DNA of 37,289 bases. It comes from an uncultured virus (IMG/VR IMGVR_UViG_2831971958_000015) (Duplodnaviria > Heunggongvirae > Uroviricota > Caudoviricetes). The stretch's first letter is position 1; every line of letters starts with the position of its first letter. Of this stretch, positions 368-16,204 are shown piece by piece. The translations under genes and the position numbers were made by a program. The notes below the pieces were generated by a model, which did not search any database, was not told the DNA's origin, and saw nothing but the letters and a program-made list of their open reading frames with translations. The stretch is from the IMG/VR virus record IMGVR_UViG_2831971958_000015; one strand, 5' to 3'.

Positions 368-2023
368 TCAATCACCCACCTCTCTTTGCGCCGCATCCGG
401 AAAGACCGTATCTATATTGTGCCCCGCATCCTCGAATATACCTACCGTTACGCCGTCAAACTTTTGGAATTTGCGATATCCAATGATATCTCCAGCATCA
501 TTCCGAATTTCTTCCGTGATCGCCGGCCGATTTGCGGTGTACGTCCCTGCCACGGTAATCTTTTCCGTATCCCAGCTTTCTGGAAACCAGGATTGCCCTG
601 ACTGTCCCAGCCTTTTCTCCGGTGCCGTATGGTTTTCCACCCCGCCTATACGGACACCATTGTCATATGCCATTTCAATGTTGTATGCAATCCCTCGGTT
701 TGAAAGCTCGTTGAGATTTGCCTGCGAGTGCCCACCACCCGTCATGTTGCCGCCATTTCGCCCGCCGGCCGGTTTCTTCGGATTCGCAAGGTTGGAGAAA
801 TCTCCCACCGTTGAATGCCTTGCGGCTGAGCTTCCTACAGTTAATATACCATCTTCCCGCAATTCCTGCAATGTGGATTTTTTAATCTTTCTCAGCATTT
901 CATCACTGTCGATCAGCCCGGCGTCATAAAGGGCCATTTTTGCCTTTCCGAGATATTTGATCTGTTTTTCTCTCGGCTTTTCCTTAAAGCTTTCAAGCGC
1001 AGAATAGGGTGTTATCCCGGCCTTTGCCTTATTCTGTTCATCCAGTTCCTTTTTCCATGCGCCATCATCCTCCTCAATATATTTTTGCTGAAGCTGTCGC
1101 CGCTCCTCCAGGCTCATTCCGAGAGCATCATCTGCCGCAACTCCCCTATGGATACAATGGCAATTCACAGTTTCGCTGGCAGGGAGGATTGGATCTCTGG
1201 GATACATGGGATGATAGACAACACCATCTCTCCCCTGTAATTCAAACGGTTTATCCTTTGGAACAATCTGGCCGTCCATATCTACATGATTTGGGCGAGG
1301 CTTATTTTTATGTGCCCCGGTATGCCGCCATTCCTTCCGATCCGTAGATGGGCTTTGCTGAATCGCCTCTTCTCTGGCAACCGAATGTGCCCGCAGCACT
1401 TCGGTAACAGCTACCCGCCGTGCCTGGTAATGTTCATTCCGCCAGCCTCCATCCATTATTTTCCGCGTAAGTGTCTCAATGCTTTCTCCCTGATCTATAG
1501 TTCTCTGGATAATATCCGTTATCTGTTGATGGGTATTTATTTTCATCAGCTGTCCCAGCCGCTGGCTCCATGAGGCAATCCAGCTTTTTGTTCTCTGCCG
1601 GATGACATCAACAACCAGGTCTCCGTCTGTTTCCTGCATATAAACCGTTGCCAGCTTAGGAACCTCTGTTTGGAACATATCTGCAGCGGCTTCCTGAACC
1701 TGCTCCGCAATATCATCTCCGTCAAGCATTTCAGATACTTTTTTCTGCGCCGCAGCCCATCCGGAATCCTGTTCCGCCGCCAGTGCTTCCACAAGATCAT
1801 CTGTCTGGTTCTGAAGCGTTTCCGCTATCTCTTCCTGCATGGCATTGATTACCTCGACTGAATCTTCTGCATCAGCATACCCTTCATCAGCCAACACATC
1901 CGACAATTCATCATCAGCTTTTGCAAGATACTTGTCTATGGCCTCTATGATTCCATCGGCATTTGATATGAGAGCTTTTGCAATCGCCTGGTTATATTTT
2001 AACTGCCTCGGCATATCACTCAC
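368..2023 (-). CDS. MuF/SPP1 gp7-like minor head protein with C-terminal bacterial EndoU-type RNase toxin domain
   Basis: Follows portal. MuF motifs ARRVAVTE, KEW, RPNH, NCHC. C-terminal RHSTVG..GGGHSQ..SWFPESW..TVFP fits the EndoU_bacteria pattern. Confidence 0.85.
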   Translation of the reverse strand: MSDMPRQLKYNQAIAKALISNADGIIEAIDKYLAKADDELSDVLADEGYADAEDSVEVINAMQEEIAETLQNQTDDLVEALAAEQDSGWAAAQKKVSEMLDGDDIAEQVQEAAADMFQTEVPKLATVYMQETDGDLVVDVIRQRTKSWIASWSQRLGQLMKINTHQQITDIIQRTIDQGESIETLTRKIMDGGWRNEHYQARRVAVTEVLRAHSVAREEAIQQSPSTDRKEWRHTGAHKNKPRPNHVDMDGQIVPKDKPFELQGRDGVVYHPMYPRDPILPASETVNCHCIHRGVAADDALGMSLEERRQLQQKYIEEDDGAWKKELDEQNKAKAGITPYSALESFKEKPREKQIKYLGKAKMALYDAGLIDSDEMLRKIKKSTLQELREDGILTVGSSAARHSTVGDFSNLANPKKPAGGRNGGNMTGGGHSQANLNELSNRGIAYNIEMAYDNGVRIGGVENHTAPEKRLGQSGQSWFPESWDTEKITVAGTYTANRPAITEEIRNDAGDIIGYRKFQKFDGVTVGIFEDAGHNIDTVFPDAAQREVGD

Positions 2024-3713
2024 CCTCTTTCTCTCGATATCCTTTCAACGCCTTCCGGATTTCCAGCATAATAGGAATAATATCCGCATCAAAAACAGCT
2101 GCTTTCCGGATTTGCCCGTCAAGCTGCTCGATCTCTTCATCCGTAACCACTCTTTTTTGCCTCTGAGACTCTCTCTTTTGACCTGTAGGCTCGTTAGTCT
2201 GCGCCGACAGGCTTCCCAACGGTTCAGCCGCTAAACCCGCCTGTTGGCTTTGTGAGAGCGTTTTTGTATAAGCAAGCGGAATGTCTCCCCATTCCCCTTC
2301 GTAGTCCTCGCAGCCGTCTTTCCCCAGAACTTCATAAGTCAGAGCTTTGGCGGTATTGGGTGTCAGGCCGCCGGCCCGTTCCGTAATGTTCAGCATCTTC
2401 TGAATATCATCCGGATTGGTGATGTCTGGCTCATCGAATTGCGCCTCCACATGTTTGAAGCGATAACCATTCAGCAGTTTTTGATTGACTGCCCAGGCAA
2501 GGGACGTCCTTTCTGGCTGGAATACCTGTTTTTCAGTAACCTCCATTGCCGTCTGAGCCGTTGCCCTGTTAAAGTCTGTGGTATATCCCACATACAGATC
2601 CGGGAGTAGGAAAGCTGACTGCGTTTTCTTTCTTCCGTTCTCCTGGTACTCCTGAAACAGTTCATCTTTTTGTAGGATGGCAGCAAGATCCTTGATTTCT
2701 ACTTCCGGCTGTTTCTGATCCGTAAATGCGGCCGTGGTCTCCAAGGTGTCCGTCTCCAATACCAAAAAGGAGTGCTGTCCGCTTTCTCCTTCAATGCCGT
2801 CCATATACGCTTGCAGTTTGGTAAATGCCGAGTCTGTCAGCGTTCCACCCTTGACCAATATCATAAGCGGCGTATGCCTCCCATGCCGGAAATAATTATT
2901 ATTTAAAACCTCTGCCCTTCGGTTCCCGTCCACGGTAAGCACTTGCCCGATCCAGCGGACTTCTCCGTATGGCATACTTCCAATGCGGAATTCGATAATC
3001 TCATTGGCCTGGTCATCTATGTCGATAGGAGCATCAGCCTCTCCTATGTACTCACCATTTCTCTTATCCATGATACGGGGATCTCCAAACTCCTTGAAGT
3101 ACACCGTCTTACCGCCTACATTCTGCCGGAACTTGCGAAATTTCTTTTTTCTGTTGATTGCTTTCCCCTTGTAAAAATACTCGATATCCACATATGGCCG
3201 AAGCGGATATGTCATATCAACGGACGGCGTATCGATAATGAACTGCAGCTCCACGACCTCCTGTGCCTGATTCCTGATAACCTCGCAATAGGATATTCCA
3301 TACGTTTCCCGGTCACGGATAACATTTTCAAATACCTCTTTTGTCTGCATATCCATATTGAGAAGCGCTATGATCTGCTTCAGCGTATCCCATTCCGCTT
3401 TCATCTCCGGCGTTTCTGTATCATAATCTTCTGCGTATCTCACAGAAATACCAAAACCGGCAATATTGCTCTTATATGCTCTGATGCACTGCGGCAAAAT
3501 CGTGGAATTATCAACCAGAATTTTCAGGCCGCGCATATCAATGGCATGTGGTATCCAGTCAGAAGCAGATATCTGTATGGACGGATCCAGCTGTTCGCCC
3601 TTATCCGACTTCTCCACCTTCTGCTGCTCATAAAATACTGTCGGTGTATCCATGCTGGAGGATTTTATTATTTTCACATCCACTCTTGGCGTAGGAGCTT
3701 TCTTTTCATCCAT
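2016..3713 (-). CDS. Phage portal protein (PBSX XkdE-like)
   Basis: Between terL and MuF. Motifs YGEVRW, NNNYFRHGRHTP, DFNRATAQTA. Confidence 0.88.
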   Translation of the reverse strand: MDEKKAPTPRVDVKIIKSSSMDTPTVFYEQQKVEKSDKGEQLDPSIQISASDWIPHAIDMRGLKILVDNSTILPQCIRAYKSNIAGFGISVRYAEDYDTETPEMKAEWDTLKQIIALLNMDMQTKEVFENVIRDRETYGISYCEVIRNQAQEVVELQFIIDTPSVDMTYPLRPYVDIEYFYKGKAINRKKKFRKFRQNVGGKTVYFKEFGDPRIMDKRNGEYIGEADAPIDIDDQANEIIEFRIGSMPYGEVRWIGQVLTVDGNRRAEVLNNNYFRHGRHTPLMILVKGGTLTDSAFTKLQAYMDGIEGESGQHSFLVLETDTLETTAAFTDQKQPEVEIKDLAAILQKDELFQEYQENGRKKTQSAFLLPDLYVGYTTDFNRATAQTAMEVTEKQVFQPERTSLAWAVNQKLLNGYRFKHVEAQFDEPDITNPDDIQKMLNITERAGGLTPNTAKALTYEVLGKDGCEDYEGEWGDIPLAYTKTLSQSQQAGLAAEPLGSLSAQTNEPTGQKRESQRQKRVVTDEEIEQLDGQIRKAAVFDADIIPIMLEIRKALKGYREKEGE

Positions 3714-5191
3714 CAGCTCTTGCCTCCCTTCTTCTTATAATTCATTGGCAAACACACAAGCAGAATACAGTCCCCTTCATCCGGAGAGGAAAGCCCCCTG
3801 TCTTTCATATCCTGTTTGCTCTCTACTTTCTGTTTGGCATTACTCCCAAACTCAAATTTCCGGCAAGACAGCTGGCCGATAAGGTCACTGTCATCCGGCA
3901 AGATCACTTCTGGCACATGGGGACGCCCGAAATCATCATATGGCGCAATCAGATCCCTTACTACCCCCATCATATAGGTTGTCGAATCCGCATAATGCCG
4001 GTGCTTTATTGGCACTCCGAAATTCACTGCCAGAATAGCCATATCCCCAAACACTTCCGGGTCAGAACGTTTCCAGTTTCTCAGCTGATCAACAACACCG
4101 CCTCCGACACCGCCATCATCGACTTTCACGCCAATCTGTCCCTGGAATCTAAACCGCTGCTTCAATTCCTTATAGAGCCGCGCTATCATGCTGGCCGTCC
4201 AGGTGGTATCCTTCCCGTTGTACTTTTTATAGATTTGGACTACTTCATTTACCCGATACCCTATGCAGGTTTTATCATCGCCAAACCGGGCCACGTCACA
4301 GCCTATCTCAATCAGCTCCACTCCGCTCACATCTACCGGCTGGAGATTCCCGGCGCCGTCCCGGTATTTTCCGAATGCTCTGGCTGTAGGCTCTGACATT
4401 TCGGTTTTGATACTCTGCTCCAGAAACGAGATAGGGATAAACACATCATCTTCCTGCTCTGGGAACTCCCCATATACACGGACACGGACCACATTGCTGC
4501 GCTCCCCATACTTTCGCTTCATGGCATCGATATTCTCTTTATTGGTACGCTTGCTATGCTCCGCATTTACCGTATGACAGCGATACAAGGCCCTGTCTGC
4601 AGTATGGCTTTCATAAAACGTGCCGCTGGTCTTTGTCGGATTGCCCATCAGCAGAAGTTTGTTATTGGCTCCAGCCAGAGTACCGGTAATTGCCTCCATA
4701 ATCGGATCTGCTACGCCCGATGCCTCATCCACAATGAAGAGCATATTGTCCTCATGGAATCCCTGCATATTCTCCGGCTTGGTCGCTGTCCTTGCCACCG
4801 CAAACCAGCGTTTTTCATATCCAATCATGTAAACGTATGTTTTGGTCCATTTAAGGAGCATTGGGAGTAGCGGAGAATTATTCATCCACTTATCAACCTC
4901 AGACCACAATACATCGTGAAGCTGCTGCTTTGTAGGGGCCGTGGCCACAATGCGCGGATACGGAAAGCAAACCAGGAACCAAAGAAGCAGTGCCGCTTCC
5001 TCACCGGTTTTCCCGACACCTTGCCCTGATTTGACTGACACTCTCGGATAATCCCTCAAATCATAGGCCACCTCGATCTGCCAATCATCCGGTTCAAACA
5101 GCAATACCTCGCGCATAAATAAAACCGGATCGCCTCGCCACAGCGGGATGCTTTCATCAAGGAATTCTTCAAGCCATTTTTCATTTTTCAT
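3713..5191 (-). CDS. terL: Terminase large subunit
   Basis: Walker A SGQGVGKT, APTKQQ, Walker B FIVDEASG, GNP coupling motif, nuclease GCDVARFGDD and SPDEGD. Confidence 0.95.
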   Translation of the reverse strand: MKNEKWLEEFLDESIPLWRGDPVLFMREVLLFEPDDWQIEVAYDLRDYPRVSVKSGQGVGKTGEEAALLLWFLVCFPYPRIVATAPTKQQLHDVLWSEVDKWMNNSPLLPMLLKWTKTYVYMIGYEKRWFAVARTATKPENMQGFHEDNMLFIVDEASGVADPIMEAITGTLAGANNKLLLMGNPTKTSGTFYESHTADRALYRCHTVNAEHSKRTNKENIDAMKRKYGERSNVVRVRVYGEFPEQEDDVFIPISFLEQSIKTEMSEPTARAFGKYRDGAGNLQPVDVSGVELIEIGCDVARFGDDKTCIGYRVNEVVQIYKKYNGKDTTWTASMIARLYKELKQRFRFQGQIGVKVDDGGVGGGVVDQLRNWKRSDPEVFGDMAILAVNFGVPIKHRHYADSTTYMMGVVRDLIAPYDDFGRPHVPEVILPDDSDLIGQLSCRKFEFGSNAKQKVESKQDMKDRGLSSPDEGDCILLVCLPMNYKKKGGKS

Positions 5192-5969
5192 CCCGCTGCC
5201 TCCTTGCCTCTAAAACTTTTTGGGCCCAGGTCTTCACAATATCATTGCCAGCCTCTTCATTCTCCAGCTTTTGGCTCTCCGTCCTGAGTCTTGACAGTGC
5301 CTCTATAGCCTTTGTCTTTGCCCTCTGCACTTTGGTTAATTCAGCCTCCAGGGCCATTATGCTGCTCATGACAGCTTCCGTGTGCGTGACGCTGGTTTCT
5401 GTCACCTTCTTATATTTTCCAGCACCGGCACTCTCTCCATCAAAATCTGTCACATCCTCCACCTTTTTGGTCTTGGATGCCGCTTTTACGGAAAGCCCAT
5501 GGTTCTCCGCTTCCAGCTCCCGATAGTGCTTGATCCTCTGCATCAGGCGGCGCTCCCGTATGGAGAACATTTGCAGCTGCATAAGCAGGTGTTCTTCCTC
5601 GGAATCCCCCATACTTTCAATCATGCCCAGTTCTTCATCGTCCAGGGTATCCCAGTATACCTTGGAATAGGCTCCATGTGTTTCTGCGTTTTTATTTCTT
5701 TTAGGGGTAGATGGGGCATGGCCAGCAGCATTCTTATTCCCTCTCGGCGCTCCTTTTGGTTTCCGAGCGTTCGGTTTCTTTTTATCCGAGCGTTCGGTTT
5801 CTTTTTTTTTACTCTGTTCGCTTTTATTTCCATCCCATTTTTGGGTAGATTTCCATCTGCGGACAGTGCTGTCCGGTACGCCGATTTTCTTCGCAATATC
5901 AACCAGTTTCATCCCATCCTGGTATAGCTTTTCTGCTTCAATACTGCTTGGGCTTCTTGCTCTTGCCAT
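5181..5969 (-). CDS. terS: Terminase small subunit
   Basis: N-terminal HTH (LVDIAKKIGVPDSTVRRWKS), GAPRGNKNA and NKNAETHGAYS motifs, directly upstream of terL. Confidence 0.9.
   Translation of the reverse strand: MARARSPSSIEAEKLYQDGMKLVDIAKKIGVPDSTVRRWKSTQKWDGNKSEQSKKKETERSDKKKPNARKPKGAPRGNKNAAGHAPSTPKRNKNAETHGAYSKVYWDTLDDEELGMIESMGDSEEEHLLMQLQMFSIRERRLMQRIKHYRELEAENHGLSVKAASKTKKVEDVTDFDGESAGAGKYKKVTETSVTHTEAVMSSIMALEAELTKVQRAKTKAIEALSRLRTESQKLENEEAGNDIVKTWAQKVLEARRQRDEK
5762..5806. repeat. Two 22-bp direct repeats (TCCGAGCGTTCGGTTTCTTTTT, 23-bp period) inside terS; candidate pac site
   Basis: Exact copies at 5762-5783 and 5785-5806, each with near-palindrome CCGAGCGTTCGG. Confidence 0.6.
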
Positions 5970-6002
5970 TCATCACCACCTCGCTATTTGTTTTGTTTTC
6001 AT

Positions 6003-6031
6003 AAAAACAGAGGGAGGCAATGCACTCCCTC
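6003..6031 (-). terminator. Intrinsic terminator between ibrB-like gene and terS
   Basis: Minus strand GAGGGAG-TGCATTGC-CTCCCTC-TGTTTTT. Confidence 0.7.
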
Positions 6032-6066
6032 GTTGTTGTGTCATACGGATACCGATTGATTTAACA

Positions 6067-6588
6067 TTAAATCTTCGTTATAAACTCCGCTTTCGAGAAC
6101 CCCTGATCCGGCTTGATCATCATTTTCAGAAAGTCTTCTTTGGAAAACTCTGAAAGCCGGAAGATTTCCTCCGGCCTCATTCCCAGCTGCTTCCCAATTT
6201 CTTCCACGGATTTCCCCTCTGCCATCAGCTCCTTTACGATTGCTTTCATGGGTCCCAGCAGATGCGTACCTCTCGCCCTGTTATGGGTAACAGTTCCATA
6301 GATATTCCCGGCCTTATCCTTATGCTCCACAATTACCACCGGCACCTTCCCGTCCAGCATGGAAACCAGAGGCTCTTCTCCGGCAACCGTCCATCTGTGG
6401 AATCCGTCAATAATCGTGAAATCCGGCCTTACCACAATCGGCAGGGTCCAGCCATTGGCAAGTATGGATTGCTTCAGCAATTCCAGGTTCTGTTTTGATA
6501 CTTTGTTTGGGTTGTAGTCGTTCGGTTTCACACTCCCCCTGTCTACCCATCGGAGCGTTGACAGCGGGCCAGAAATCTTATTGTCCAT
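6067..6588 (-). CDS. ibrB: ParB/Srx-fold protein, IbrB/YbdM-like
   Basis: PNDYNPNKV, GWTLPIVV, IIDGFHRW, HNRARGTH motifs. AAGGAGG RBS before ATG 6588. Overlaps the ibrA-like stop. Confidence 0.82.
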   Translation of the reverse strand: MDNKISGPLSTLRWVDRGSVKPNDYNPNKVSKQNLELLKQSILANGWTLPIVVRPDFTIIDGFHRWTVAGEEPLVSMLDGKVPVVIVEHKDKAGNIYGTVTHNRARGTHLLGPMKAIVKELMAEGKSVEEIGKQLGMRPEEIFRLSEFSKEDFLKMMIKPDQGFSKAEFITKI

Positions 6589-7729
6589 TCGGCAGCCCCT
6601 CCTTTTTCTTGGCTTCTGTGATATATTTTCCATAGATCCTCTGGTATAGCGCCCGGAACGAACGCAGCTTCGGATCGCCCGATATAAGCCCTTCATAAAT
6701 CGCCTTGCAGTCCTTATTGTCCGCAATAGCAGAAACACTCATAAAAAAGTTTCGGTATCGGTTGGCCACATATCGCTTATGCTCCGTCCGAAAATTCCCA
6801 TCCATGTCAGAGAACAGCTCCAGAAGCGCCGCCTTGTAATCCTTTTCAGCGCTCCCCTTTTCATTCTGCTTTCTGGCTGTGGTATTTCTCCCGAACATCT
6901 CACTGTCCCAATAGAGGGCAGCGAGATAAGCGTTTGGTTCCCTACGAATGATCCGCTCCATCAGATCCGGATAATACTCATTCATTTTCACAAGGCTCTT
7001 GGCCGTGTCAATGGAGAAAAACTGCGATACCCTCAGCTGGCCCTTCTTTGTCCCGGACTGCCATAAAAACAGGTATATCTCCGGAATATCCACTTTTTCC
7101 CGCAGTAGATAGAGCCATACATCATTGTTGGTCCAATCATAGATCGGGAATACCTGGTGCTTATTCGTCATGGACTTTCCGGCTCTCAACATTACTGCGA
7201 TATTTTGCAGGCGCTGTACGGATTCTGCTGTCCGGATTCCGGTTATGGTAATCCCCGCTGTGCATAGCCTCGGCAGGAAATCCTGATACGCATCTATGCG
7301 GGGCCGCAAGAGCGGATGGTCCCGGATTGCGAATGATGGGGGCTGCCTTACCCATACATCCTTTTTATATCTGTCCCAGCAGATGAAAGTTTCATCGTTG
7401 GACAGTTCGTTAAAGCAGTTGTAGTGTTTCACCTCAAGGCAGAACCACTCAAACTTTGCCCCAACTAACATGAATTTTTTGCGCCATTCCCGCACCTTTT
7501 CCTCCATGCATGGGAAAATGGCTTCTTCATCAATGAATTGCACAATGAGCTGCGCCGGATCGATCTCGCCAGTCTGGATCAGATTCATTACCAGCTGCGA
7601 CATGCAAAGGCTGTCTTTCCCACCGCTGAAAGACATATAAACCGGGAGACCATTTCGGAAAACATTCCGGATTCTGATCTTTGCAGCTTCCACCACATCG
7701 ATGCTGGCCGGGCATCTTTTTATAGCCAT
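6578..7729 (-). CDS. ibrA: PAPS-reductase-fold PP-loop protein, IbrA/YbdN-like
   Basis: SFSGGKDS PP-loop, FIDEEA, GIRTAESVQR, PIYDWTNNDVW. Paired with an IbrB-like gene. Confidence 0.82.
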   Translation of the reverse strand: MAIKRCPASIDVVEAAKIRIRNVFRNGLPVYMSFSGGKDSLCMSQLVMNLIQTGEIDPAQLIVQFIDEEAIFPCMEEKVREWRKKFMLVGAKFEWFCLEVKHYNCFNELSNDETFICWDRYKKDVWVRQPPSFAIRDHPLLRPRIDAYQDFLPRLCTAGITITGIRTAESVQRLQNIAVMLRAGKSMTNKHQVFPIYDWTNNDVWLYLLREKVDIPEIYLFLWQSGTKKGQLRVSQFFSIDTAKSLVKMNEYYPDLMERIIRREPNAYLAALYWDSEMFGRNTTARKQNEKGSAEKDYKAALLELFSDMDGNFRTEHKRYVANRYRNFFMSVSAIADNKDCKAIYEGLISGDPKLRSFRALYQRIYGKYITEAKKKEGLPNGQ

Positions 7730-8346
7730 ATCTTTTCTCCACATTTCGGGCAGACAACAAATTTTCTTATCTCGGTGGGATCTTCATTGTCTGCCGCCGG
7801 CTCCTGCTGCACTACTGCGGCCGGGGCCTGTTCTGACTGCTGTTCTCCCTGGCTGGCCTGCATCTGCTGATCCCTTTTCTCCGCCGCCTCCTTAATGCTC
7901 CGGATCTCATCTTCATCAAGGGTTCCATATTCAGAAAGCTTGCTTGTGATATCCTCGGCCTCCGACACCATCTGTTTCAGTATTTCTTCATCAAATCCGG
8001 GAATATCCAGATCGCCCTGCAGGTCCTCCAAAAAGCTGTTCAACGTCTCCAGGTTCTCAATCCCCAGGCTGAAAATCTTATTGTCAGCGATCATCAGCTT
8101 CTTTTTCTGATTTTCAGTGAGATTGTCATACCGGTACACGTCTGCCGTGTCCATCCCCATCGCAACGAGGGTATCATACAGGCCGTTCCCTGCCAGAATG
8201 ATATTCTTTTCATCCACGACAATCGGCCTGATCTGCCCGAACATTTCCACGCTCCGGCGAAATTCTTTGATCTGCTGCTCTGTATGGATCCTGACATTCT
8301 TCTCAGGCTTTACCAGATCAGCCAATTTCATTTTTACCACTTTCAT
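7720..8346 (-). CDS. ParB-like N-terminal domain protein with C-terminal CPKCG zinc-ribbon half site
   Basis: NVRIH..FGQIRPIVVDEKNIILAGNG..IADNK. GGAGGA RBS before ATG 8346. Confidence 0.8.
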   Translation of the reverse strand: MKVVKMKLADLVKPEKNVRIHTEQQIKEFRRSVEMFGQIRPIVVDEKNIILAGNGLYDTLVAMGMDTADVYRYDNLTENQKKKLMIADNKIFSLGIENLETLNSFLEDLQGDLDIPGFDEEILKQMVSEAEDITSKLSEYGTLDEDEIRSIKEAAEKRDQQMQASQGEQQSEQAPAAVVQQEPAADNEDPTEIRKFVVCPKCGEKIWL

Positions 8347-8420
8347 GTCCGCATCCTCCAAACTGATTTGGTAGGAGCGTCTGCAACGTATGATCTATAT
8401 GCCATCTGCAAATAGCAAAA

Positions 8421-8460
8421 TTGACAGCCATTGCGGACATTTGCCTGCAAGTGCTGTCAA
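8421..8460. repeat. Four tandem 10-bp units (TTGACAGCCA/TTGCGGACAT/TTGCCTGCAA/GTGCTGTCAA) bounded by the inverted repeat TTGACAGC...GCTGTCAA; iteron-like
   Basis: Read directly; same unit family as 25637-25686 and 34127-34167. Confidence 0.65.
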
Positions 8461-8471
8461 GTGAAAACATT

Positions 8472-9257
8472 TTATTTCAGACTATCCAAAAAGTCTTTTG
8501 CGCTCTGGATATGTTCTGCCGCCTCCGTTACGATAGAGCCGTCTATCTCATAGATCTCTGCCCAGGCATTTTCCACGCTTCCGGTCCACTGCCTTGCCGG
8601 CCATGGATGCGTGCCGCAGAGATACCCGTTTTTCCAATCATAGATTGGCGGCATCTCCAGATTGTGATAATGGATATATGCCAGCATCTGTTCATGTGTC
8701 CAGTCGGAGAGCGGGCTGTATCTCGTCACGCCCTGATTGTTGGTATAGATATTGTCTCCCCTTCCCACATAGTTCCCATCTGCCCGCCGGCGTCCCAAAA
8801 GCATCATATCCAGCTGGTTCTCTTTGTAATATTTCGCCTGCCCTCTATGCTGAACGATCTGGAACCACATAGACGCATATTTGCTGTCCTGTGGGAAAAG
8901 CATCTGCGGATGGGCGGCCAGCCATTTCATGTCCTGTCCTGTGTTGATTATGGACAATTCCGGAGGCTTATGAGCATCCACCCATTCTATAAACGCTTTG
9001 TACTCCAAATTGCAGATAACGAGCACACAGGAGGCTATCCCCGCCATACGGCAGATTTCCCCCAGAACCAGGGAATCCTTTCCGCCGCTCCATGCATATG
9101 CGGCTTTCTTGCCCCTGGTTTTCTTTTTAATCTCCTTCACGGTTTTATCCACCAGCTGATCCAGCTCTTTCCGGCTCACGGCCTGCTCGATCTTTGCAAG
9201 CGCCTCGATCCATTCAGAATTTTTGATCCGCTGCTTTCTTCCAAGTATTTCACCCAT
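8472..9257 (-). CDS. Second PAPS-reductase-fold/PP-loop adenine-nucleotide alpha hydrolase
   Basis: AYAWSGGKDS, LLGRRRADGN, SPLSDWTHEQML. Start overlaps the symporter stop (ATGGGTGA). Confidence 0.8.
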   Translation of the reverse strand: MGEILGRKQRIKNSEWIEALAKIEQAVSRKELDQLVDKTVKEIKKKTRGKKAAYAWSGGKDSLVLGEICRMAGIASCVLVICNLEYKAFIEWVDAHKPPELSIINTGQDMKWLAAHPQMLFPQDSKYASMWFQIVQHRGQAKYYKENQLDMMLLGRRRADGNYVGRGDNIYTNNQGVTRYSPLSDWTHEQMLAYIHYHNLEMPPIYDWKNGYLCGTHPWPARQWTGSVENAWAEIYEIDGSIVTEAAEHIQSAKDFLDSLK

Positions 9258-10635
9258 GGTCCTCACCCCGCTTTCTGGTCACGGCCAGAGCCACGGCTCC
9301 GGAGAGGATAACGGTCAGAAGGCTCCCTGCAGTCTTGCAAACGGCTATCCCCTTTATATTTCCATACCCGAACACCGGCAGTCCGATCAGCATGGCGGAG
9401 ATAACTCCTGCCACGATGCCCTGCGGCGCCAGCCTTACGCCTTTAAGGGTAAGAACCGTTGGCAACAATGTGGAGGCTCTGAGCGTTCCGTACATCAGGA
9501 AAAAGTGCGTTACCGTCAGCCCCGGGATATTTGCTACCGCAATGCCGGCGGCCAACAGCAAGATCATGGAGAGCTTTGTTTTCCCCATTGTATTTTTCCG
9601 AAAAATGTCTGTTGTGAGGGAAGATACTGCGCACAGGTTACTGTCAATCGTGGACAGCAGGCCGGAAATGATCATAAACAAAAACGGGATCACCGCCCAG
9701 GCCGGAAATAATGTGCTTATCAACTCAAAATTGACCACCCCGGTATCCACCGCGGCATATCCCATGCCGGCGCCGATAAATCCGAGGATCCCCATCGACA
9801 GCGGCACAATGCCAAACAGCAGAGCTCCTACCAGAAATGCCCTGCCGACCCTGTCTTTTTTCACGCAGAAAGCCCTCTGCCAAAAGCACTGATCCCCAAA
9901 CGGCCCGGATATAAGCCCGATTGTGGTCGGAAGCCCAAATCCGAGGAAAATCTCCAGTCCACTTGCCGAGAACAGGCGTCCGGCATCCCCTGTGGCCCCT
10001 CTTAAACCCGTAAGCAGCGTTTCCAGCCCTCCGCCATTCTTTACACCAAAAGCCACAAAACCTATGCTGGCGGCCAACATGAAGACCATCTGAATGGCAT
10101 CTGTCAGTATCGAGGCCCTTATCCCGGAAAACTGGGAATAGGAAAACGCAATCGCCGCCATAATCACCGTCATGGCGGTAAACGGGATCCCGGTAAGCAT
10201 ACTTAAAATCTTGCTGCCTGCCAGCAGCTGCACCCCGGTAGATAATACCGACAATGCGCCGAGCTGGAGCAGGTAAATGTTCTTCACGGAGCCGGACCGG
10301 TATTTTTCATGCATATACCCGGAAAGAGTGATCCCCTCCGGCATTTCCTCCCTTATCCTTTTTGCAAAAGGGATGAACAGTATCAGGCAAAGCACATTCG
10401 GTACCAGGAACCAGAAGAGCCCTGCAAAGCCCTTTGTGTATGCGTTCTCGGTTGACGTGAACAGCGCCGGCGCCCATATCCATGTGGCGGCTATGCTCAG
10501 CGCGGATATTCCCCACCCGATATCTCTATTCCCGACACAGAACCTTTCGACATTGCCCTCTTTTTTTGTCATAAGCACCGTTGCCCCAAACATTACCACC
10601 GCATAGGCCAACAGCACGATCAAAGTGTAATTCAT
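9250..10635 (-). CDS. Sodium:solute symporter (SSS) family transporter
   Basis: About 13 hydrophobic segments. SIAATWIWAPAL, GIRASILTDAIQ, DQCFWQRA and GLLSTIDSNL (Na-site region) motifs. AAGGAGGA RBS. Confidence 0.88.
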   Translation of the reverse strand: MNYTLIVLLAYAVVMFGATVLMTKKEGNVERFCVGNRDIGWGISALSIAATWIWAPALFTSTENAYTKGFAGLFWFLVPNVLCLILFIPFAKRIREEMPEGITLSGYMHEKYRSGSVKNIYLLQLGALSVLSTGVQLLAGSKILSMLTGIPFTAMTVIMAAIAFSYSQFSGIRASILTDAIQMVFMLAASIGFVAFGVKNGGGLETLLTGLRGATGDAGRLFSASGLEIFLGFGLPTTIGLISGPFGDQCFWQRAFCVKKDRVGRAFLVGALLFGIVPLSMGILGFIGAGMGYAAVDTGVVNFELISTLFPAWAVIPFLFMIISGLLSTIDSNLCAVSSLTTDIFRKNTMGKTKLSMILLLAAGIAVANIPGLTVTHFFLMYGTLRASTLLPTVLTLKGVRLAPQGIVAGVISAMLIGLPVFGYGNIKGIAVCKTAGSLLTVILSGAVALAVTRKRGEDHG

Positions 10636-10717
10636 GGTATTCCTCCTTATTTTCTTTTGGAGGAGCCCTCATGCCATCCTCTCCCTGCTCCATCTCCTTT
10701 CCCGGAAAAATTGCACG

Positions 10718-10749
10718 AAAAAGGAAGCCCGGAATACTACCAGGCTTCC
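10718..10749 (-). terminator. Intrinsic terminator just downstream of the late promoter
   Basis: Minus strand GGAAGCCTGG-TAGTATT-CCGGGCTTCC-TTTTT. Confidence 0.8.
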
Positions 10750-10780
10750 CCGACGTTCGATTTAGAATTTTACGAGTACA

Positions 10781-10809
10781 ATTTTCCCACTTTTATATTG
10801 TAATGTCAA
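10781..10809 (-). promoter_or_regulatory. Putative late promoter (sigmaA-type)
   Basis: TTGACA (10809-10804), 17-nt spacer ending TGG, then GAAAAT (10786-10781), just after the late regulator gene. Confidence 0.65.
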
Positions 10810-10834
10810 TGGAAAGTTTTTTGAGCCGGAGGAT

Positions 10835-11587
10835 TTATCGAACGTTCAATCCGTCCACCCCAAAAATGAGCGCCGTCAGCCTCTCAATCCCTACCCGGAG
10901 ATCCGAATATACACTGTCCTTGGAAATATTCTGCTTTTCCGCAATCTCCTTGGCCGAAAGCGTATCCTCCGCCATATACATATCCCATACCACATTGTAC
11001 CGGCGCAGATCAATCTCCCTATTGGTGGACCTGTCACAGTAAGAATAATACAATCCGAACATAGTTTCGATATGAGATACAATGATAGCCGTCCTGGTGG
11101 CGCTGTTCTTGATGCTCTGGATGATAACCTCGTCATTATAGATGGACATCATGGATTCAAGAATATCCAGCGCCGACTCCTTCATCTGCGTCCGGCCAAA
11201 AACGGAATTTTCTGCATGCTCCTTCAGCATATGATAATTCCGCAGAAGAAGTTTGGTATTGCGAAGCCGCTTGTCGGCCCGGTGGCTGTACTCCTTCTTC
11301 CGTTCCTGTTCAAATGTCTTGAGCGCCTCCCTTGCCCCAATCGCAGCTGCTTTCTCATATATTTCACGAAGTTCTGTAGCTGAGAGACACACGATCTTCT
11401 CTGGTTTCGCTTCTTCCTCAGCTTTGCGTTTTTGTTCCCGGACCGGCTTTTCCGCATGAGCACGCAGAGCTTCTTCTACTGCTTCGGGTGTAATTCCCAT
11501 TTCTGCGGCAATCCTCTCGGTTCTCCAGCCGGCCGATCTGAGTGCCGCCGCCTTCCCGGCATCAATATTTTTGTTGTCTGTTTTCAT
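10835..11587 (-). CDS. Putative late transcriptional regulator (C-terminal sigma70 r4-like HTH; ArpU/RinA-like position)
   Basis: RLRNTKLLLRNY and LSAKEIAEKQNISKDSVYSDL. Last gene before the late promoter. Extra N-terminal HTH. Confidence 0.7.
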   Translation of the reverse strand: MKTDNKNIDAGKAAALRSAGWRTERIAAEMGITPEAVEEALRAHAEKPVREQKRKAEEEAKPEKIVCLSATELREIYEKAAAIGAREALKTFEQERKKEYSHRADKRLRNTKLLLRNYHMLKEHAENSVFGRTQMKESALDILESMMSIYNDEVIIQSIKNSATRTAIIVSHIETMFGLYYSYCDRSTNREIDLRRYNVVWDMYMAEDTLSAKEIAEKQNISKDSVYSDLRVGIERLTALIFGVDGLNVR

Positions 11588-11608
11588 GCAATCGCCCTCC
11601 TGATCCTA

Positions 11609-11679
11609 TTTCAATTTCTATCAGATTATGTTATAATCTAACTGTCTGTTGGAGGGTTGCGAAAGCACTCTCCTTTTTT
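11609..11679 (+). ncRNA. Candidate short antisense transcript: extended -10 promoter plus terminator
   Basis: TGT-TATAAT (11629-11637), then hairpin GGAGGG-T-TGC-GAAA-GCA-CTCTCC followed by TTTTTT (11651-11679). Confidence 0.5.
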
Positions 11680-11890
11680 ACTGCCCCAAAAGTGTCTGCA
11701 GATAATCTTCCATGGATATCTGTCCCGGGAGATTGTGATCGGCTTCTTCCACTGCCGGTACCGGCATATCGGCATCCCTGTGGCTTGCATGCGGGGCAAT
11801 GCCAAATTTCCTTTTATAGCAGACCGGACCATACCCCAGCTCCCGGCTCTTTGGGTTCTTTAATTTTCTGCCGCAGATTGAACACTTCAT
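11678..11890 (-). CDS. Small zinc-finger protein (DUF6011-like)
   Basis: CSICGRKL..SRELGYGPVC; GGAGGG RBS. Confidence 0.7.
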   Translation of the reverse strand: MKCSICGRKLKNPKSRELGYGPVCYKRKFGIAPHASHRDADMPVPAVEEADHNLPGQISMEDYLQTLLGQ

Positions 11891-12108
11891 AGCCCTCCCT
11901 CCGCCAGCCGCCTTATGTACTGCCGTATGACTTTTGAAACCGCCGCCGGCTCCATGCGCATTTCAGCCGCGATATCTTCATCGGTCCACCTTGCCCTTTT
12001 CAGAGCCATTATTTTTCCAGTATCGATACGCTTTGGAGCCTTTTCCTCCGGTTTTTCCTTGACTCGCTTCGGTTTTTGGGATTTTAATACGCTTTTTGTC
12101 TTAGCCAT
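11887..12108 (-). CDS. Small HTH protein
   Basis: IDTGKIMALKRARWTDEDIAAEM; start overlaps the upstream stop. Confidence 0.6.
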   Translation of the reverse strand: MAKTKSVLKSQKPKRVKEKPEEKAPKRIDTGKIMALKRARWTDEDIAAEMRMEPAAVSKVIRQYIRRLAEGGL

Positions 12109-12328
12109 TTGCTTCCACCCCTTTCCGCAGGGCGCATTCCGTACATAAGGCAGTGGCTCCCTGCTGAAGCACCACTGAAAGCAGCGGTGTCTTCCAGCAT
12201 TCACATCCACACGCCGGGCATTGTGTAAGTTCCCATCCATCCCGGCCGACCGGAATATTCTTCCTCATGGGCATCATGGCATATCCGCCTTTTTCCTTTG
12301 GGCCTCTCGGCCATATCTTTACTTCCAC
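12101..12328 (-). CDS. Small Cys-rich hypothetical protein
   Basis: CPACGCEC and CTEC; GGAGGG RBS with GTG start. Confidence 0.6.
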   Translation of the reverse strand: MEVKIWPRGPKEKGGYAMMPMRKNIPVGRDGWELTQCPACGCECWKTPLLSVVLQQGATALCTECALRKGVEANG

Positions 12329-12330
12329 GC

Positions 12331-12774
12331 TTATCCCTCCCCTCCCACGTTTTGTAATTTCTGATCAATAATCGGAATCAGCATCCTTGCCGACACCCTC
12401 ATGTGGATCCTGGTAGGCGCCTCCACAATCTTGTAAAGCATATCCGTATATACCTGCTCTGCAGATAATCCCCTGGCATATTCCTCTGCCTGCTGCCTGG
12501 TTTCATCCACAATCGGGATAGTGCTGCACTTCTCAGCAATCTCATGAATCAGCTGCCTTGCCTCGTTGGAGAAAACAACCGTATTGTCTGATTTGACAAT
12601 ATCCATATCAAGCAGATCCGCAATCATATCATCAAGTTTTTTCATACTCACCATCCGCCTTTTCATCATTTCAGAATTTTGTAGGATTTCCATCCATTCC
12701 TGCTCTTGCTGACAAGTTAGCGATAATACCACCCTGTCATTTGCAACCCAATCTAACACCCTGTTCTGTTCCAT
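12331..12774 (-). CDS. Hypothetical phage protein
   Basis: Operon-coupled ORF with RBS before MEQNRV. Confidence 0.55.
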   Translation of the reverse strand: MEQNRVLDWVANDRVVLSLTCQQEQEWMEILQNSEMMKRRMVSMKKLDDMIADLLDMDIVKSDNTVVFSNEARQLIHEIAEKCSTIPIVDETRQQAEEYARGLSAEQVYTDMLYKIVEAPTRIHMRVSARMLIPIIDQKLQNVGGEG

Positions 12775-13132
12775 CCTCCGCCTCTCCCCTTTCAATACCG
12801 GCCATCCGGCCAATCTGCTCGATATGGAACCGATAATATTCCTTTCCAGGGACAGCTCCCCATTCTTCCCTTCCGGTTCCGATAGATAATTTACACATGA
12901 CCTCCACTTCCGGAGAATCACGTCTATATCCGTTCTGGAGAATGACCGGATGGGCCTTGATCGTGCCCTGGGCCCTAAGCAGCTCCAGAACAGTCTCCGT
13001 TTCCTCGCTGGGAAATCCCAGCCAGTGTATAATCCTCACGGTCCAATATGGTTTTATCTCCCGGTATTCATCTTTTTTCTCTCCGGAAAGTATCATATCA
13101 AGCCACTTGCGCTCTATGGGAAGTATCAACAT
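12737..13132 (-). CDS. ASCH domain protein
   Basis: LPIERKWLDMILSGEKKDEYREIKPYW (GxKxxExR). Confidence 0.8.
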   Translation of the reverse strand: MLILPIERKWLDMILSGEKKDEYREIKPYWTVRIIHWLGFPSEETETVLELLRAQGTIKAHPVILQNGYRRDSPEVEVMCKLSIGTGREEWGAVPGKEYYRFHIEQIGRMAGIERGEAEDGTEQGVRLGCK

Positions 13133-13938
13133 AGCTCACTCGCCTCCTTTTGTAAATGGTTTTCCTTTATCCTTCTAAGATTATCCAATGCTCTCTGCAG
13201 ATCATCCTCTACACGCCCTAATTCTTTCGGATAGCTGCTGCTCAGAGCATCATCCAGATCTTTTAAAGTATCATCCAGATTTCGGTACCAGCGCCATCCT
13301 AATATCTGATGCTTTTCCAGAATCTCCTCGATCTTACGGAGCTGCTCAAGCCGTCCCTCCACATCGCTCAGGCGCTCAAGCCTCTCCTGGCAATTTTTGA
13401 GATCCTTTGCCATCTTACTTCCGAAGTCTCGCCCTATCTTCCTCTTTTCGCTCTGATCCGCGAGATAATCTCTGGCATATTCTGCCCGGTCCTCATAAAA
13501 CGGTATCCGCTCCTGATCCAGCCGGCTGTAAATGATATACTTATAAACTCCCACCGGCTCCTCGATTTTCCGATAAACCGCCCTTCTCTTTTTCATGAGT
13601 TTCCCTGTTTCGGGATAATAGTAGATCAGGCCGACATTTTCCGGAATTTCATCCTTTGCCACCAATCCCGCAGGAACCACGAAATAAAATTCATTACAGT
13701 ATTGCAGATACAAATGCCATTTATTATCTCCAAGGAAACCGCTGCGGCTTACCTTGATTTCATATCCGGTTATACATGGCGCCGTATAGCTTCTGGTCAT
13801 TGCCAGTCCGTCAAATTTGAGCATTCCTTGTGGATCCGGAAAGTATGTAGAGCAGGTTTTGCACTCTGTAAGGAAATAATCCTTCGGATGGTATTTAGCC
13901 AGCGCTTTCTTTATTTCTGTTGATGTTACTTTTAGCAC
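13126..13938 (-). CDS. MmcB-like PD-(D/E)xK nuclease
   Basis: FDGLAM..GYEIKVSRSGFLGDNKW..YCNEFYFVVP; AAGGAGGTG RBS before GTG 13938. Confidence 0.72.
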   Translation of the reverse strand: MLKVTSTEIKKALAKYHPKDYFLTECKTCSTYFPDPQGMLKFDGLAMTRSYTAPCITGYEIKVSRSGFLGDNKWHLYLQYCNEFYFVVPAGLVAKDEIPENVGLIYYYPETGKLMKKRRAVYRKIEEPVGVYKYIIYSRLDQERIPFYEDRAEYARDYLADQSEKRKIGRDFGSKMAKDLKNCQERLERLSDVEGRLEQLRKIEEILEKHQILGWRWYRNLDDTLKDLDDALSSSYPKELGRVEDDLQRALDNLRRIKENHLQKEASELC

Positions 13939-14371
13939 CTGTCTCACCTCCTTCTTTCTTGGCCTCTTTCCCCCTACCACTATATTTCACAGCTAAAGCC
14001 ATCGCATCCTCTCCAACATCATCTTTTCTCTCTTTCGCCTCCATTTTCTTTTTACACTTCTCCAGCTGCTTTTCGTAGTCATATTCGATCTGTTCTGCCA
14101 GCCGGTCGGCCATCTTCGTGAACACGCCCCGATAATATGCCTGATAAAAGACATCATCAGCCTTTATTTCATCCAACATATTTATATAATCGTGCAGCAT
14201 ACAGATGATCAGCACCACATCATAGTATGAACAGCTGACCACATAGTCACACATCAGGCGGAGATTGATGGCTTTTTCAATCATCACCTGCTTTTCTTCC
14301 TCCCGGGACATTTCTTTTTCGACCTCATGGAGAAACTGAAACAGGAACCACAGCCGTTCTTTTTTATCCAT
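13895..14371 (-). CDS. Hypothetical phage protein
   Basis: AAAGGTGG RBS, operon context. Confidence 0.6.
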   Translation of the reverse strand: MDKKERLWFLFQFLHEVEKEMSREEEKQVMIEKAINLRLMCDYVVSCSYYDVVLIICMLHDYINMLDEIKADDVFYQAYYRGVFTKMADRLAEQIEYDYEKQLEKCKKKMEAKERKDDVGEDAMALAVKYSGRGKEAKKEGGETGAKSNINRNKESAG

Positions 14372-14384
14372 CACATTCCACCTT

Positions 14385-14567
14385 TCAACTAAATTTCCAC
14401 GCATCCATTCCATACAGATTGTGGCTTTTCCCTGTCAGAGTGATCTTATCCGTAAATTCCTCTCTGCAGCTTTTCTTCGCTGCCCTTCTCATTCCCCGAG
14501 AAGTGCATCTCTTTATATGCCGTTTGTACCCAGGACCGACAAATCTGTTTTTATGATACATTCCCAT
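14385..14567 (-). CDS. Small basic hypothetical protein
   Basis: AGGAGGTG RBS before ATG 14567. Confidence 0.5.
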   Translation of the reverse strand: MGMYHKNRFVGPGYKRHIKRCTSRGMRRAAKKSCREEFTDKITLTGKSHNLYGMDAWKFS

Positions 14568-14576
14568 AGGCACCTC

Positions 14577-14918
14577 CTATTTTTTTATCAGCCTTATCCT
14601 TTTTCTGTTCCTTCTGGCTCCATAATCAGACATTACAAATTCCACGCATTCTTCTTTGCGCTGGTTCAGTTTCCGGCGATCTCCATCATATACCCGGCAA
14701 TCATCACAGTTAAAACACGGCTCCTGCATCTCCCCTGGCTTAACTCTGTCCAGTGATTGCTCCGCATTATTCACGCAAAACTCGCATAGACAGTTGGCAC
14801 ATAGACATACCGGATCTCTTACCTTTTCAAACAGCTGCTCAAATTGTGTCCGGGGTGGCTTCAGTTCGCTTTCTGGTGGTTTCTCTATGAAATCAAATAT
14901 ATCCATTTGCCTATACAT
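14577..14918 (-). CDS. Cys-rich hypothetical protein with N-terminal QMDIF motif
   Basis: CLCANCLCEFC and CFNCDDC; GGGAGGT RBS. Confidence 0.62.
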   Translation of the reverse strand: MYRQMDIFDFIEKPPESELKPPRTQFEQLFEKVRDPVCLCANCLCEFCVNNAEQSLDRVKPGEMQEPCFNCDDCRVYDGDRRKLNQRKEECVEFVMSDYGARRNRKRIRLIKK

Positions 14919-14951
14919 ATTACCTCCCACCATGCGCAACATAAAAATATA

Positions 14952-15128: not shown

Positions 15129-15171
15129 ATAATCAATCTCCTTTAATCACCGGATAAGAGAATTCCGTTGT

Positions 15172-16199: not shown

Positions 16200-16204
16200 C
16201 GGCC

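Follow-up and report, generated by a model that had tools for sequence, protein, structure and literature searches.

A phage gene cassette joining a solute transporter to IbrA/IbrB-like and ParB-like proteins ahead of the terminase genes: a candidate import-and-modify system

Introduction

IbrA and IbrB, together with their counterparts YbdN and YbdM of Escherichia coli K-12, constitute a gene pair in which a PP-loop protein of the phosphoadenosine phosphosulfate (PAPS) reductase fold is followed by a small ParB-N protein. In a literature search with subscription papers outside its coverage, no biochemical study of either pair was found; the E. coli genes, ybdNM, are repressed by CitR (PMC9068703). 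Here we describe a related pair, located within a larger cassette, in a stretch of DNA of 37,289 nucleotides (nt) from an uncultured virus (IMG/VR IMGVR_UViG_2831971958_000015; Caudoviricetes), the whole of which is referred to below as the window. The window represents a temperate phage in a mouse-gut genome of the Lachnospiraceae type, the closest named records being Acetatifactor and related metagenome-assembled genomes and isolates. The cassette, which encodes a transporter of the SSS (sodium:solute symporter) family, two PP-loop proteins and two ParB-like proteins ahead of the packaging genes, proves to be a genuine module of phages, widespread and tightly conserved but as yet uncharacterised.

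Other systems combine proteins of the same kinds. In DNA phosphorothioation, DndB, a ParB-superfamily protein, is paired with DndC, a PAPS-reductase-like PP-loop ATP pyrophosphatase acting on DNA (PMC10853773). A ParB-dependent phage thymine dioxygenase (5mYOX) needs a small ParB-fold partner on double-stranded DNA, and mutations of the nucleoside triphosphate (NTP)-binding residues left the role of this ParB unaffected (PMC13229309). DpdB, the partner of DpdA, is characterised as a ParB-like ATPase (PMC12839542). Within the same literature coverage, no paper was found that links a solute symporter to PAPS reductase and ParB genes in a phage. At the same time, PAPS-reductase-like genes are among the most frequently reported sulfur 'auxiliary metabolic genes' in viromes, and virome papers name such genes cysH.

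Results

Composition of the Cassette

The five genes are co-oriented and precede terS, as a preliminary description of the window, made from the sequence alone, had proposed. All are located on the minus strand, between the gene of a putative regulator and terS:

9250..10635, minus strand: SSS transporter, 461 amino acids (aa); PF00474, phrog_20720
8472..9266, minus strand: PP1, PAPS-reductase-like PP-loop protein, 264 aa; PF01507; alternative ATG start at 9257
7720..8346, minus strand: ParB1, ParB/Srx-fold protein, 208 aa (213 aa if TTG at 8361 is the start); phrog_620 and fold
6578..7729, minus strand: IbrA-like PP-loop enzyme, 383 aa, with a PAPS_reduct domain and a helical C-terminal domain; phrog_2302
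6067..6588, minus strand: IbrB-like ParB-N protein, 173 aa; ParB_N at 25.7 bits, phrog_2159

The genes had also been regarded as mostly translationally coupled, and three of the four junctions do overlap: SSS/PP1 by 8 or 17 nt, ParB1/IbrA by 10 nt, and IbrA/IbrB by 11 nt. The sole non-overlapping junction, from PP1 to ParB1, is a gap of 110–125 nt. The start of the IbrA-like gene was set at 7729 because, of the 111 distinct related IbrA stretches, 21 carry a stop as the third codon of the longer frame; that of the IbrB-like gene was placed at 6588 (MDNKISG) and not at 6738, conservation among the relatives beginning there.

Conservation of the Cassette among Related Loci

With the transporter as a seed, 195 relatives were found in IMG/VR, 338 in species-representative genomes and at least 403 in metagenomes. 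The best 80 loci of each scan, denoted here by L and a number, were examined, and a locus was considered assessable when the sequence beyond the transporter extended for at least 3.5 kb in the downstream direction or when the IbrA+IbrB pair was seen. The counts were as follows:

Viral loci, SSS-seeded: 70 assessable, 68 with IbrA+IbrB, 66 of these with PP1
Genome loci, SSS-seeded: 69 assessable, 66 with IbrA+IbrB, 60 of these with PP1
Metagenome loci: 55 assessable, 50 with IbrA+IbrB, 36 of these with PP1

In the reverse direction, the SSS gene is present in 53 of the 57 assessable IbrA-seeded loci. These counts do not represent independent events, as many of the loci are near-identical phages. 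A transporter unlinked from the enzymes in other phages, which had been named beforehand as a sign against a common function, was not the pattern found in any of the three collections.

The survival of the link through changes of gene order, flanks and sequence identity is a stronger argument than the counts. The genes stay together in five arrangements: SSS-PP1-ParB1-IbrA-IbrB, SSS-ParB1-IbrA-IbrB, ParB1-SSS-IbrA-IbrB, ParB1-IbrA-IbrB-SSS, and ParB-SSS-(five sugar genes)-PP1-IbrA-IbrB. The link persists where the identity of the transporter drops to 42–50% and that of IbrA to 24–28%, and IbrB remains 39–59% identical even in the most distant cassettes. The cassette precedes at least four terminase types or families, and the flanking regulator, of 20–100% identity, is syntenic in most close relatives and replaced in the distant ones. 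The hosts include Lachnospiraceae, Oscillospiraceae, Ruminococcus, Anaerovorax, Peptococcaceae, a Clostridioides difficile chromosome, and a phage of 61–65% G+C. The exceptions are mostly damaged copies, with deletions (L071, L411), truncated transporters (L252, L262, L095, L112) or an end within IbrA (L280, L373). In L280, from Eubacterium plexicaudatum ASF492, a Mu-like transposase (rve and Mu-transpos_C), an AAA_22 ATPase and two small genes (7301–10836) lie between SSS and PP1, this Mu-like insertion interrupting an otherwise typical cassette.

The five genes behave as a unit, as first suggested; however, PP1 is dispensable in many relatives, being absent from otherwise complete cassettes (e.g., L043, L077, L266, L281, L310, L314 and L318) as well as from most of the distant ones, and the core is therefore taken to consist of four genes: transporter, ParB1, IbrA and IbrB.

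Among GenBank phages, a megablast search with the cassette gave no match and tblastn gave one unannotated gut fragment, MT836198. The isolated Faecalibacterium phage FP_Taranis carries a related cassette with ParB1, IbrA (43% identity) and IbrB followed by terS, preceded by a gene for a 333-aa membrane protein for which no Pfam or PHROG family was found. Its comparison with the SSS transporter gave a weak lead only (BLASTP E 0.41; hhalign probability 2.3%), to which can be added, likewise as a lead, its place in a protein-atlas 'sodium:proline symporter' cluster (score 0.92, 157 shared features).

The constant position immediately upstream of terS/terL over several terminase families would suit a packaging accessory, in which TerS and TerL would act on a pac/cos region marked or cut by the ParB-like proteins and the PP-loop enzymes would serve as cofactors; the nuclease activity of some ParB/Srx proteins (PMC12839542) agrees with this. 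Such a role would, however, leave the transporter, the glutaminase and the sugar enzymes of the variant cassettes described below unexplained, and most phages with the same terminase families lack the cassette. Moreover, in phage CHPC1148 the IbrA/IbrB pair is flanked by the lysis genes on one side and, following it, by the gene of a Cro-like repressor, and the 9-kb stretch shown contains no terminase. We consider a packaging function distinctly improbable.

The SSS Transporter

The transporter passes the Pfam cut-off for PF00474 with 80.6 bits against 22.8 (E 1.4e-22, residues 32–348) and matches phrog_20720 at E 1e-227, remaining below the TIGR00813 superfamily cut-off (116.7 versus 184). 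It fails the NCBIfam equivalog cut-offs for PanF (70.9 versus 328.05) and PutP (47.2 versus 515.5). PanF and PutP share a superfamily with the window transporter (Pfam, TIGR00813), whose scores are far under all equivalog cut-offs; in the protein atlas, 'pantothenate permease' occurs as an automatic name. Its homologues, in 250 clusters at E<1e-30, represent a separate, mostly phage-borne subfamily with the signature GPFGDQxFWQR and conserved R37, R254 and R386. Within the family of the host, a search of 200 further genomes, one per genus, did not find the transporter at E<=1e-80, and its occurrence in this family is sporadic.

PP1 and the Case against Sulfate Assimilation

PP1 matches PAPS_reduct (PF01507) with 45.4 bits against a cut-off of 22.5 (E 1.2e-11), carries the sequence WSGGKDS, and matches phrog_424 at E 2.9e-33. 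The motifs GGKD, RRR and CGTHPW are conserved among 115 sequences, CGTH being near-invariant (at least 98% of them). In CysH-type enzymes the catalytic cysteine motif is a C-terminal ECG(L/I)H, and APS (adenosine phosphosulfate) reductases have a CC..CxxC cluster. In alignment with E. coli CysH, the CGTH of PP1 falls on the GYLSVGD stretch and not on the catalytic tail, and there is no Cys further on in PP1.

A Pfam PAPS_reduct match is shared by both PP-loop proteins, their PHROG label reads 'phosphoadenosine phosphosulfate reductase, auxiliary metabolic gene', and a review table enters phage cysH under assimilatory sulfate reduction as 'not validated' (PMC12713726). This might suggest auxiliary sulfur metabolism, with the pair acting as CysH-type enzymes that boost sulfate assimilation by the host. 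Against this, the cysH and PAPS/APS reductase models gave 18–25 bits against cut-offs of 154–254, which does not support CysH membership, and the CysD model was likewise far under its cut-off. The preliminary description had judged sulfate assimilation unlikely on account of missing motifs, and these are absent as it said: the C-terminal ECG(L/I)H cysteine from PP1, and the CC..CxxC cluster from PP1 and the IbrA-like protein alike; the IbrA-like protein also lacks the ECG(L/I)H cysteine. Both proteins keep the ATP-binding SGGKDS loop; to our knowledge, true CysH enzymes do not have it. In addition, the obligate partners are ParB-like proteins rather than sulfur enzymes, and no sulfate-type transporter is present. 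We find a role in sulfur assimilation hardly conceivable.

The IbrA-like and IbrB-like Proteins

The IbrA-like protein, which carries FSGGKDS, matches PAPS_reduct with 53.4 bits versus 22.5 (E 4e-14) and phrog_2302 at E 3.9e-96, the latter being the family of FP_Taranis gp37, annotated as IbrA. All 40 aligned IbrA members match PAPS_reduct; the PP-loop reads SGGKDS in 39 and SAGKDS in one, and the DEE and R/E/D residues are present in all 40. The set C74, C97, H102, C105 and C117 (CCHCC) is kept in 34 of the 40, with C105 alone found in every one. The DUF3440 domain was not matched by the window protein at E<=0.1 and occurs in only one of the 40 aligned members, L321 (E 1.2e-12), which has PAPS_reduct as well; the window protein aligns over the start of the DUF3440 region of L321 with 28% identity. 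The name 'IbrA-like' is, in the absence of a DUF3440 match, a loose one, although the coupled ParB-N partner and the shared phrog_2302 family speak in its favour.

No close solved structure was found for this protein by sequence search. Its predicted structure (pLDDT 80, pTM 0.75) has as neighbours the NcsA/TtuA tRNA thiolases, FMN adenylyltransferase, LarE and PAPS/APS reductases, with query-normalised TM-scores of 0.27–0.36; judged from this model, the structural neighbours are generic PP-loop proteins only.

The IbrB-like protein, with its 25.7 bits, falls just short of the ParB_N cut-off of 26.3 and reaches 25.5 against 58.45 for parB_part, while it matches phrog_2159 at E 5e-72. Residues D61, G62, H64 and R65 and the stretch H102–G107, forming the motifs DGxHR and HNRARG, are invariant among 42 sequences.

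ParB1

For ParB1 there was no Pfam match, and its structure was therefore predicted, with 42 sequences. A match to phrog_620 (E 1.9e-50) was obtained, and ParB–methyltransferase fusions (phrog_498, PADLOC MTase_II) are matched in their N-terminal part. The model of the N-terminal domain is confident (pLDDT 80–93), the remainder being poor, and Foldseek gave 23 fold matches at E<=1e-3, the top one being ParB with a CTP analogue (7bnr, E 7e-6), others including pNOB8 ParB-N, Noc, KorB, sulfiredoxin and free serine kinase. By this predicted structure, the ParB/Srx fold of ParB1 is confirmed. An acidic linker is present as well, and the protein ends in a CPxCG knuckle. The nucleotide-binding box of the ParB/Srx superfamily carries Arg/His. 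ParB1 lacks this H-R pair: the aligned motif is ILAGNGL, with invariant G53 and G55, and a few relatives have AGRGL.

Variant Cassettes and Supply Genes

Some of the related loci contain further genes within or beside the cassette. In L297 and L298 (68.5% mutual identity), a class-II glutaminase of 197–199 aa with an MCGIFG start is encoded between PP1 and ParB1. The two glutaminases exceed the GATase_6 cut-off of 27 bits with 43.7 and 50.6, and both have the N-terminal Met-Cys, whose cysteine is the nucleophile of class-II (Ntn) glutamine amidotransferases. L330 (G001; 4144–13451, 61–65% G+C) presents the order ParB, SSS, DegT aminotransferase, inositol-3-phosphate synthase, a gene without an assigned function, two GT25 glycosyltransferases, PP1-like, IbrA, IbrB and terL; its inositol-3-phosphate synthase matches TIGR03450 at E 4.5e-122, under the equivalog cut-off. 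In L406, a metagenome contig, a 2-oxoglutarate-Fe(II) oxygenase (PF13759; 5747–6400) is located directly upstream of ParB1-SSS-IbrA-IbrB, which is of interest as ParB-dependent DNA dioxygenases are now known.

Other relatives of the transporter occur without IbrA and IbrB. In L342 (550–4800) and L346 (373–5280), from two distant organisms of 46% and 63% G+C, a fused AsnB-like enzyme is encoded immediately upstream of the transporter; the AsnB-like proteins are 51% identical, and the two loci also share a Zn-ribbon/membrane/Toprim-like protein (32% identity, E 3e-52), which completes a trio. In L338, with no IbrA/IbrB in reach, the transporter gene is flanked by those of a methyltransferase and of an adenylating enzyme of the ANL type (ANL ligase). 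Taken with the insertions described above, these neighbourhoods suggest that the transporter clade may feed adenylate-forming enzymes and that some phages may add their own ammonia or sugar/cyclitol supply.

With its two GT25 genes, of a family annotated for lipopolysaccharide synthesis, and the DegT aminotransferase and inositol-3-phosphate synthase inside the cassette, L330 could point to the modification of a surface or virion glycan, a sugar-like group being placed on a component of the cell envelope or virion and not on DNA. L330, however, is one contig only, glycosyltransferases are missing from the window and from nearly all of its relatives, and the ParB/Srx partners would be left unexplained; such a target appears very improbable.

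Another reading is a pathway of small molecules, in which a ParB/Srx-type kinase would phosphorylate the imported solute and the PP-loop enzymes would adenylylate or amidate it, the product being a metabolite, a cofactor or a modified nucleotide precursor required by the phage at a late stage. The AsnB-like and ANL adenylating enzymes adjoining the IbrA/IbrB-free transporter relatives fit such a pathway, as do the glutaminase adjoining PP1 in L297 and L298, the presence of free serine kinase and sulfiredoxin among the fold neighbours of ParB1, and that of FMN adenylyltransferase/FAD synthase and LarE among those of IbrA. The best fold matches of ParB1, however, are the DNA-clamping proteins ParB, Noc and KorB, its sequence matches the N-terminal module of DNA methyltransferase fusions, and a plain metabolic set would have no reason to be fixed beside at least four terminase types. 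We regard this pathway as unlikely.

Proposed Mechanism

The reading that we favour, tentatively and at somewhat less than an even chance, is an importer-fed, ATP-dependent modification pathway that is aimed at phage DNA by the ParB-like proteins. The phage-encoded SSS transporter would bring in a small solute late in infection. The PP-loop enzymes, IbrA always and PP1 in many lineages, would spend ATP to activate a substrate by adenylation, the PP1 step perhaps being a ligation of the amidotransferase type. The two ParB-like proteins, of which IbrB appears to keep the NTP-binding DGxHR motif and ParB1 to have lost it, would direct or switch on the chemistry on phage DNA shortly before packaging. 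DNA would thus be the target, the attached group would be the imported solute or its derivative, and expression would require that the upstream regulator bring about read-through at the leader terminator. The DNA target, the solute on DNA and a possible anti-restriction role are suggested by the ParB/Srx fold, the position ahead of the terminase genes, and analogy with DndB/DndC, DpdB/DpdA and the ParB-dependent 5mYOX. The more specific proposal, for phages of gut Clostridia and distant relatives from other habitats, of DNA hypermodification from an outside solute, in which the importer supplies the compound, PP1 (with the glutaminase in some phages) processes it, and IbrA, IbrB and ParB1 attach it by adenylate chemistry immediately ahead of packaging, is possible and at present doubtful.

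Several observations weigh against a DNA-directed pathway of this kind. The ParB/Srx fold includes small-molecule kinases, free serine kinase and sulfiredoxin being among the ParB1 matches, and the PAPS-reductase fold includes FMN adenylyltransferase, so that a small-molecule pathway suits the folds equally well. In their original description, IbrA and IbrB are activators of the expression of prophage genes. Transporter-free IbrA/IbrB pairs are present in the Streptococcus phage CHPC1148, the Bacillus phage 031MP003 and the Flavobacterium phage VK58, and seven relatives of the transporter have no IbrA/IbrB in reach, of which L342 and L402 are assessable and the other five are short contigs. 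The glutaminase variant was seen in only two of 417 loci, and the sugar-gene variant is confined to the single contig of L330, no further relatives having been found among the IMG/VR viral contigs. A universal Fe-S cluster in IbrA is not claimed, as the four-Cys motif is not universal and C105 alone is invariant among the 40 sequences.

Flanking Elements and Expression Control

The cassette is bounded by the following elements:

10835..11587, minus strand: putative regulator, 250 aa, with an N-terminal helix-turn-helix (HTH) and a sigma-70 region-4-like C-terminal HTH; phrog_1558, E 5e-50
10781..10809, minus strand: promoter-like site, TTGACA, 17 nt, TG-n-GAAAAT
10716..10750, minus strand: terminator-like leader hairpin, arms GGAAGCCTGG / CCGGGCTTCC, then UUUUU
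6003..6031, minus strand: terminator-like hairpin between IbrB and terS, 7-bp stem and T run
5181..5969, minus strand: terS, the first packaging gene past the cassette; NF040601 at 161.7 bits versus 120, phrog_1889
3713..5191, minus strand: terL; phrog_5902 and phrog_2

The leader hairpin, with a G+C-rich stem of 10 bp and a U tract, is located about 80 nt before the transporter start and downstream of the promoter-like site; the 145-nt leader folds with −50.5 kcal/mol (z −3.1). The promoter-like site has 10 of 12 matches and an extended −10, and is weak alone, as the scan gave 7 sites against a mean of 7.9 in shuffled sequences; a loose promoter pattern is present in 29 of 129 distinct leaders, a count that has no control set. 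By a strict rule, a hairpin was found in 73 of the 125 distinct SSS leaders, compared with 2 of 722 coding controls and 2 of 125 reverse-complemented leaders. Stem sequences differ across lineages while the hairpin is kept (leaders of L002–L081 and L241–L328). Downstream of IbrB, the strict rule was satisfied in 20 of 108 distinct regions versus the same 2 of 722 coding controls. The terminator at 6003–6031 proposed in the preliminary description is present as a terminator-like hairpin, and fails the strict rule. An initial loose terminator scan, which was positive in 178 of 324 coding controls as well, was uninformative and has been superseded by the strict rule. No riboswitch was found in the leader, there being no Rfam match at E<=5 over positions 5800–12500.

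The Sigma70_r4_2 and HTH matches of the 250-aa regulator are weak, all under the Pfam cut-offs, and the protein can be considered a candidate late activator or antiterminator. The cassette had been placed at the head of the late operon; it does sit before terS, but it lies between two terminator-like hairpins, so that read-through, which can be presumed only, would be needed. A promoter, a terminator and late genes in series, preceded directly by a regulator gene, make up the design of lambda Q. By analogy, the cassette and the packaging genes may be read by antitermination, in a Q-type switch with the upstream regulator. A plainer alternative is that the leader hairpin merely ends the upstream transcript.

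This location between a late regulator and terS, bounded by terminator-like hairpins, would also be consistent with IbrA and IbrB (with ParB1) acting as regulators of late gene expression and the transporter and PP1 being passengers. Homologues are annotated as 'co-activators of prophage gene expression', and E. coli ybdNM is presented as a regulated operon of unknown function (PMC9068703). The invariance of the PP-loop (SGGKDS in 39 of 40) and of the DEE and R/E/D residues (40 of 40), however, would point to catalysis and not to binding alone; a passenger transporter would not remain linked across five gene orders, down to 42% identity; and genes of enzymatic supply are inserted inside the cassette. 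A purely regulatory role thus seems improbable to us.

RNA data consisted of contigs from four runs labelled as metatranscriptomic, which were compared with positions 1–20000 of the window; such contigs may derive in part from carried-over DNA. X5 and X8, both from one study, are even over all 30 bins, X12 covers mostly the early region, and X11, from another study and representing a 95–99% relative, covers the late genes and the cassette. Their use as evidence on lysogenic versus late expression was rejected, as contigs lack starts, strands and levels.

Other Genes of the Window

The right end of the window carries the integrase and repressor genes and the left end the late genes; a sliding clamp, two DNA methyltransferases and functions of replication and recombination are encoded as well. 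About 90 nt upstream of the regulator gene there is a gene for a 70-aa DUF6011 protein with a CxxC...C motif (11678–11890, minus strand), syntenic in many relatives with 30–50% identity. A D12-class (Dam-like) adenine methyltransferase is split into two open reading frames (ORFs) at 15384–16373 (minus strand), the N-terminal part being encoded at 16014–16373 and the C-terminal part at 15384–15980; the contig of a related strain skips 15421–16157, within this region. Among the late genes, 368–2023 (minus strand) encodes a MuF-like minor head protein (Phage_Mu_F) whose C-terminal part is an EndoU nuclease domain of the bacterial type (Pfam E 1.7e-15), a toxin-like domain on a virion protein. It is also worth mentioning that 26076–29924 (minus strand) encodes a 1282-aa single-frame fusion of an SbcD-like calcineurin-like phosphoesterase with an SbcC-like SMC/AAA_23 ATPase.

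Discussion

One large group of the 'cysH'-type genes of viromes, as judged from sequence, fails the CysH tests and is locked to ParB-like proteins, a dedicated importer and, in certain phages, a glutaminase or enzymes that build sugars. The cassette turns the unexplained pair IbrA/IbrB, or YbdN/YbdM, into a testable pathway, the handle being the imported compound. If the proposed pathway is true, it would give IbrA/IbrB and YbdN/YbdM their first biochemical role, and a large share of the phage 'cysH' auxiliary genes would be relabelled; if DNA is the target, phage DNA would be shown to undergo a medium-dependent modification of a new class. Named lysogens are present in public records, for example Acetatifactor aquisgranensis DSM 110981, Parablautia intestinalis D8-82 and Otoolea muris DSM 111138, and FP_Taranis is available as an isolated phage with a related cassette.

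Comparison with Known Systems

Apart from the superfamily that it shares with PanF and PutP through its transporter, the cassette resembles several known systems, each in a part of its genes. The glutaminase adjoining PP1 in L297 and L298 mirrors the glutaminase and PP-loop synthetase halves of the AsnB-type amidotransferases. PP1, however, is in the PAPS_reduct branch and not in Asn_synthase, and the window has no glutaminase, so that this is a likeness of possible working and not of membership.

In 5mYOX and DpdB/DpdA, the enzyme partners of the ParB-like protein are a dioxygenase and a transglycosylase, whereas the partner in the window is a PP-loop enzyme of another superfamily. The tolerance of the 5mYOX ParB to mutation of its NTP site recalls the loss of the H-R motif in ParB1. 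No TGT/DpdA-like gene, as would be expected of a 7-deazaguanine route, was found among the window ORFs.

The pairing of a DGxHR-type ParB-superfamily protein with a PP-loop enzyme in DndB/DndC resembles that of IbrB with IbrA. Unlike the Dnd system, the window cassette is without DndA, DndD and DndE and without the cysteine dyad, and the Cys set of IbrA is not invariant; no DndD/E-like genes were found among the window ORFs. The IbrA-like protein cannot be counted as a DndC, reaching 27.8 against 290.4 for TIGR03183, in a local match of residues 165–216, and 31.5 bits, likewise local, with the PADLOC DndC model.

The arrangement of a PAPS-reductase-fold PP-loop protein followed by a small ParB-N protein is the same in the window as in IbrA/IbrB and YbdN/YbdM, and phrog_2302 and phrog_2159 are the families annotated as IbrA and IbrB in phage records. 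Beyond this pair, cassettes of the window type also encode a transporter, another ParB-fold protein and, in many cases, another PP-loop protein. IbrA/IbrB, with YbdN/YbdM, is the closest family of the cassette, and DndB/DndC is its closest characterised analogue.

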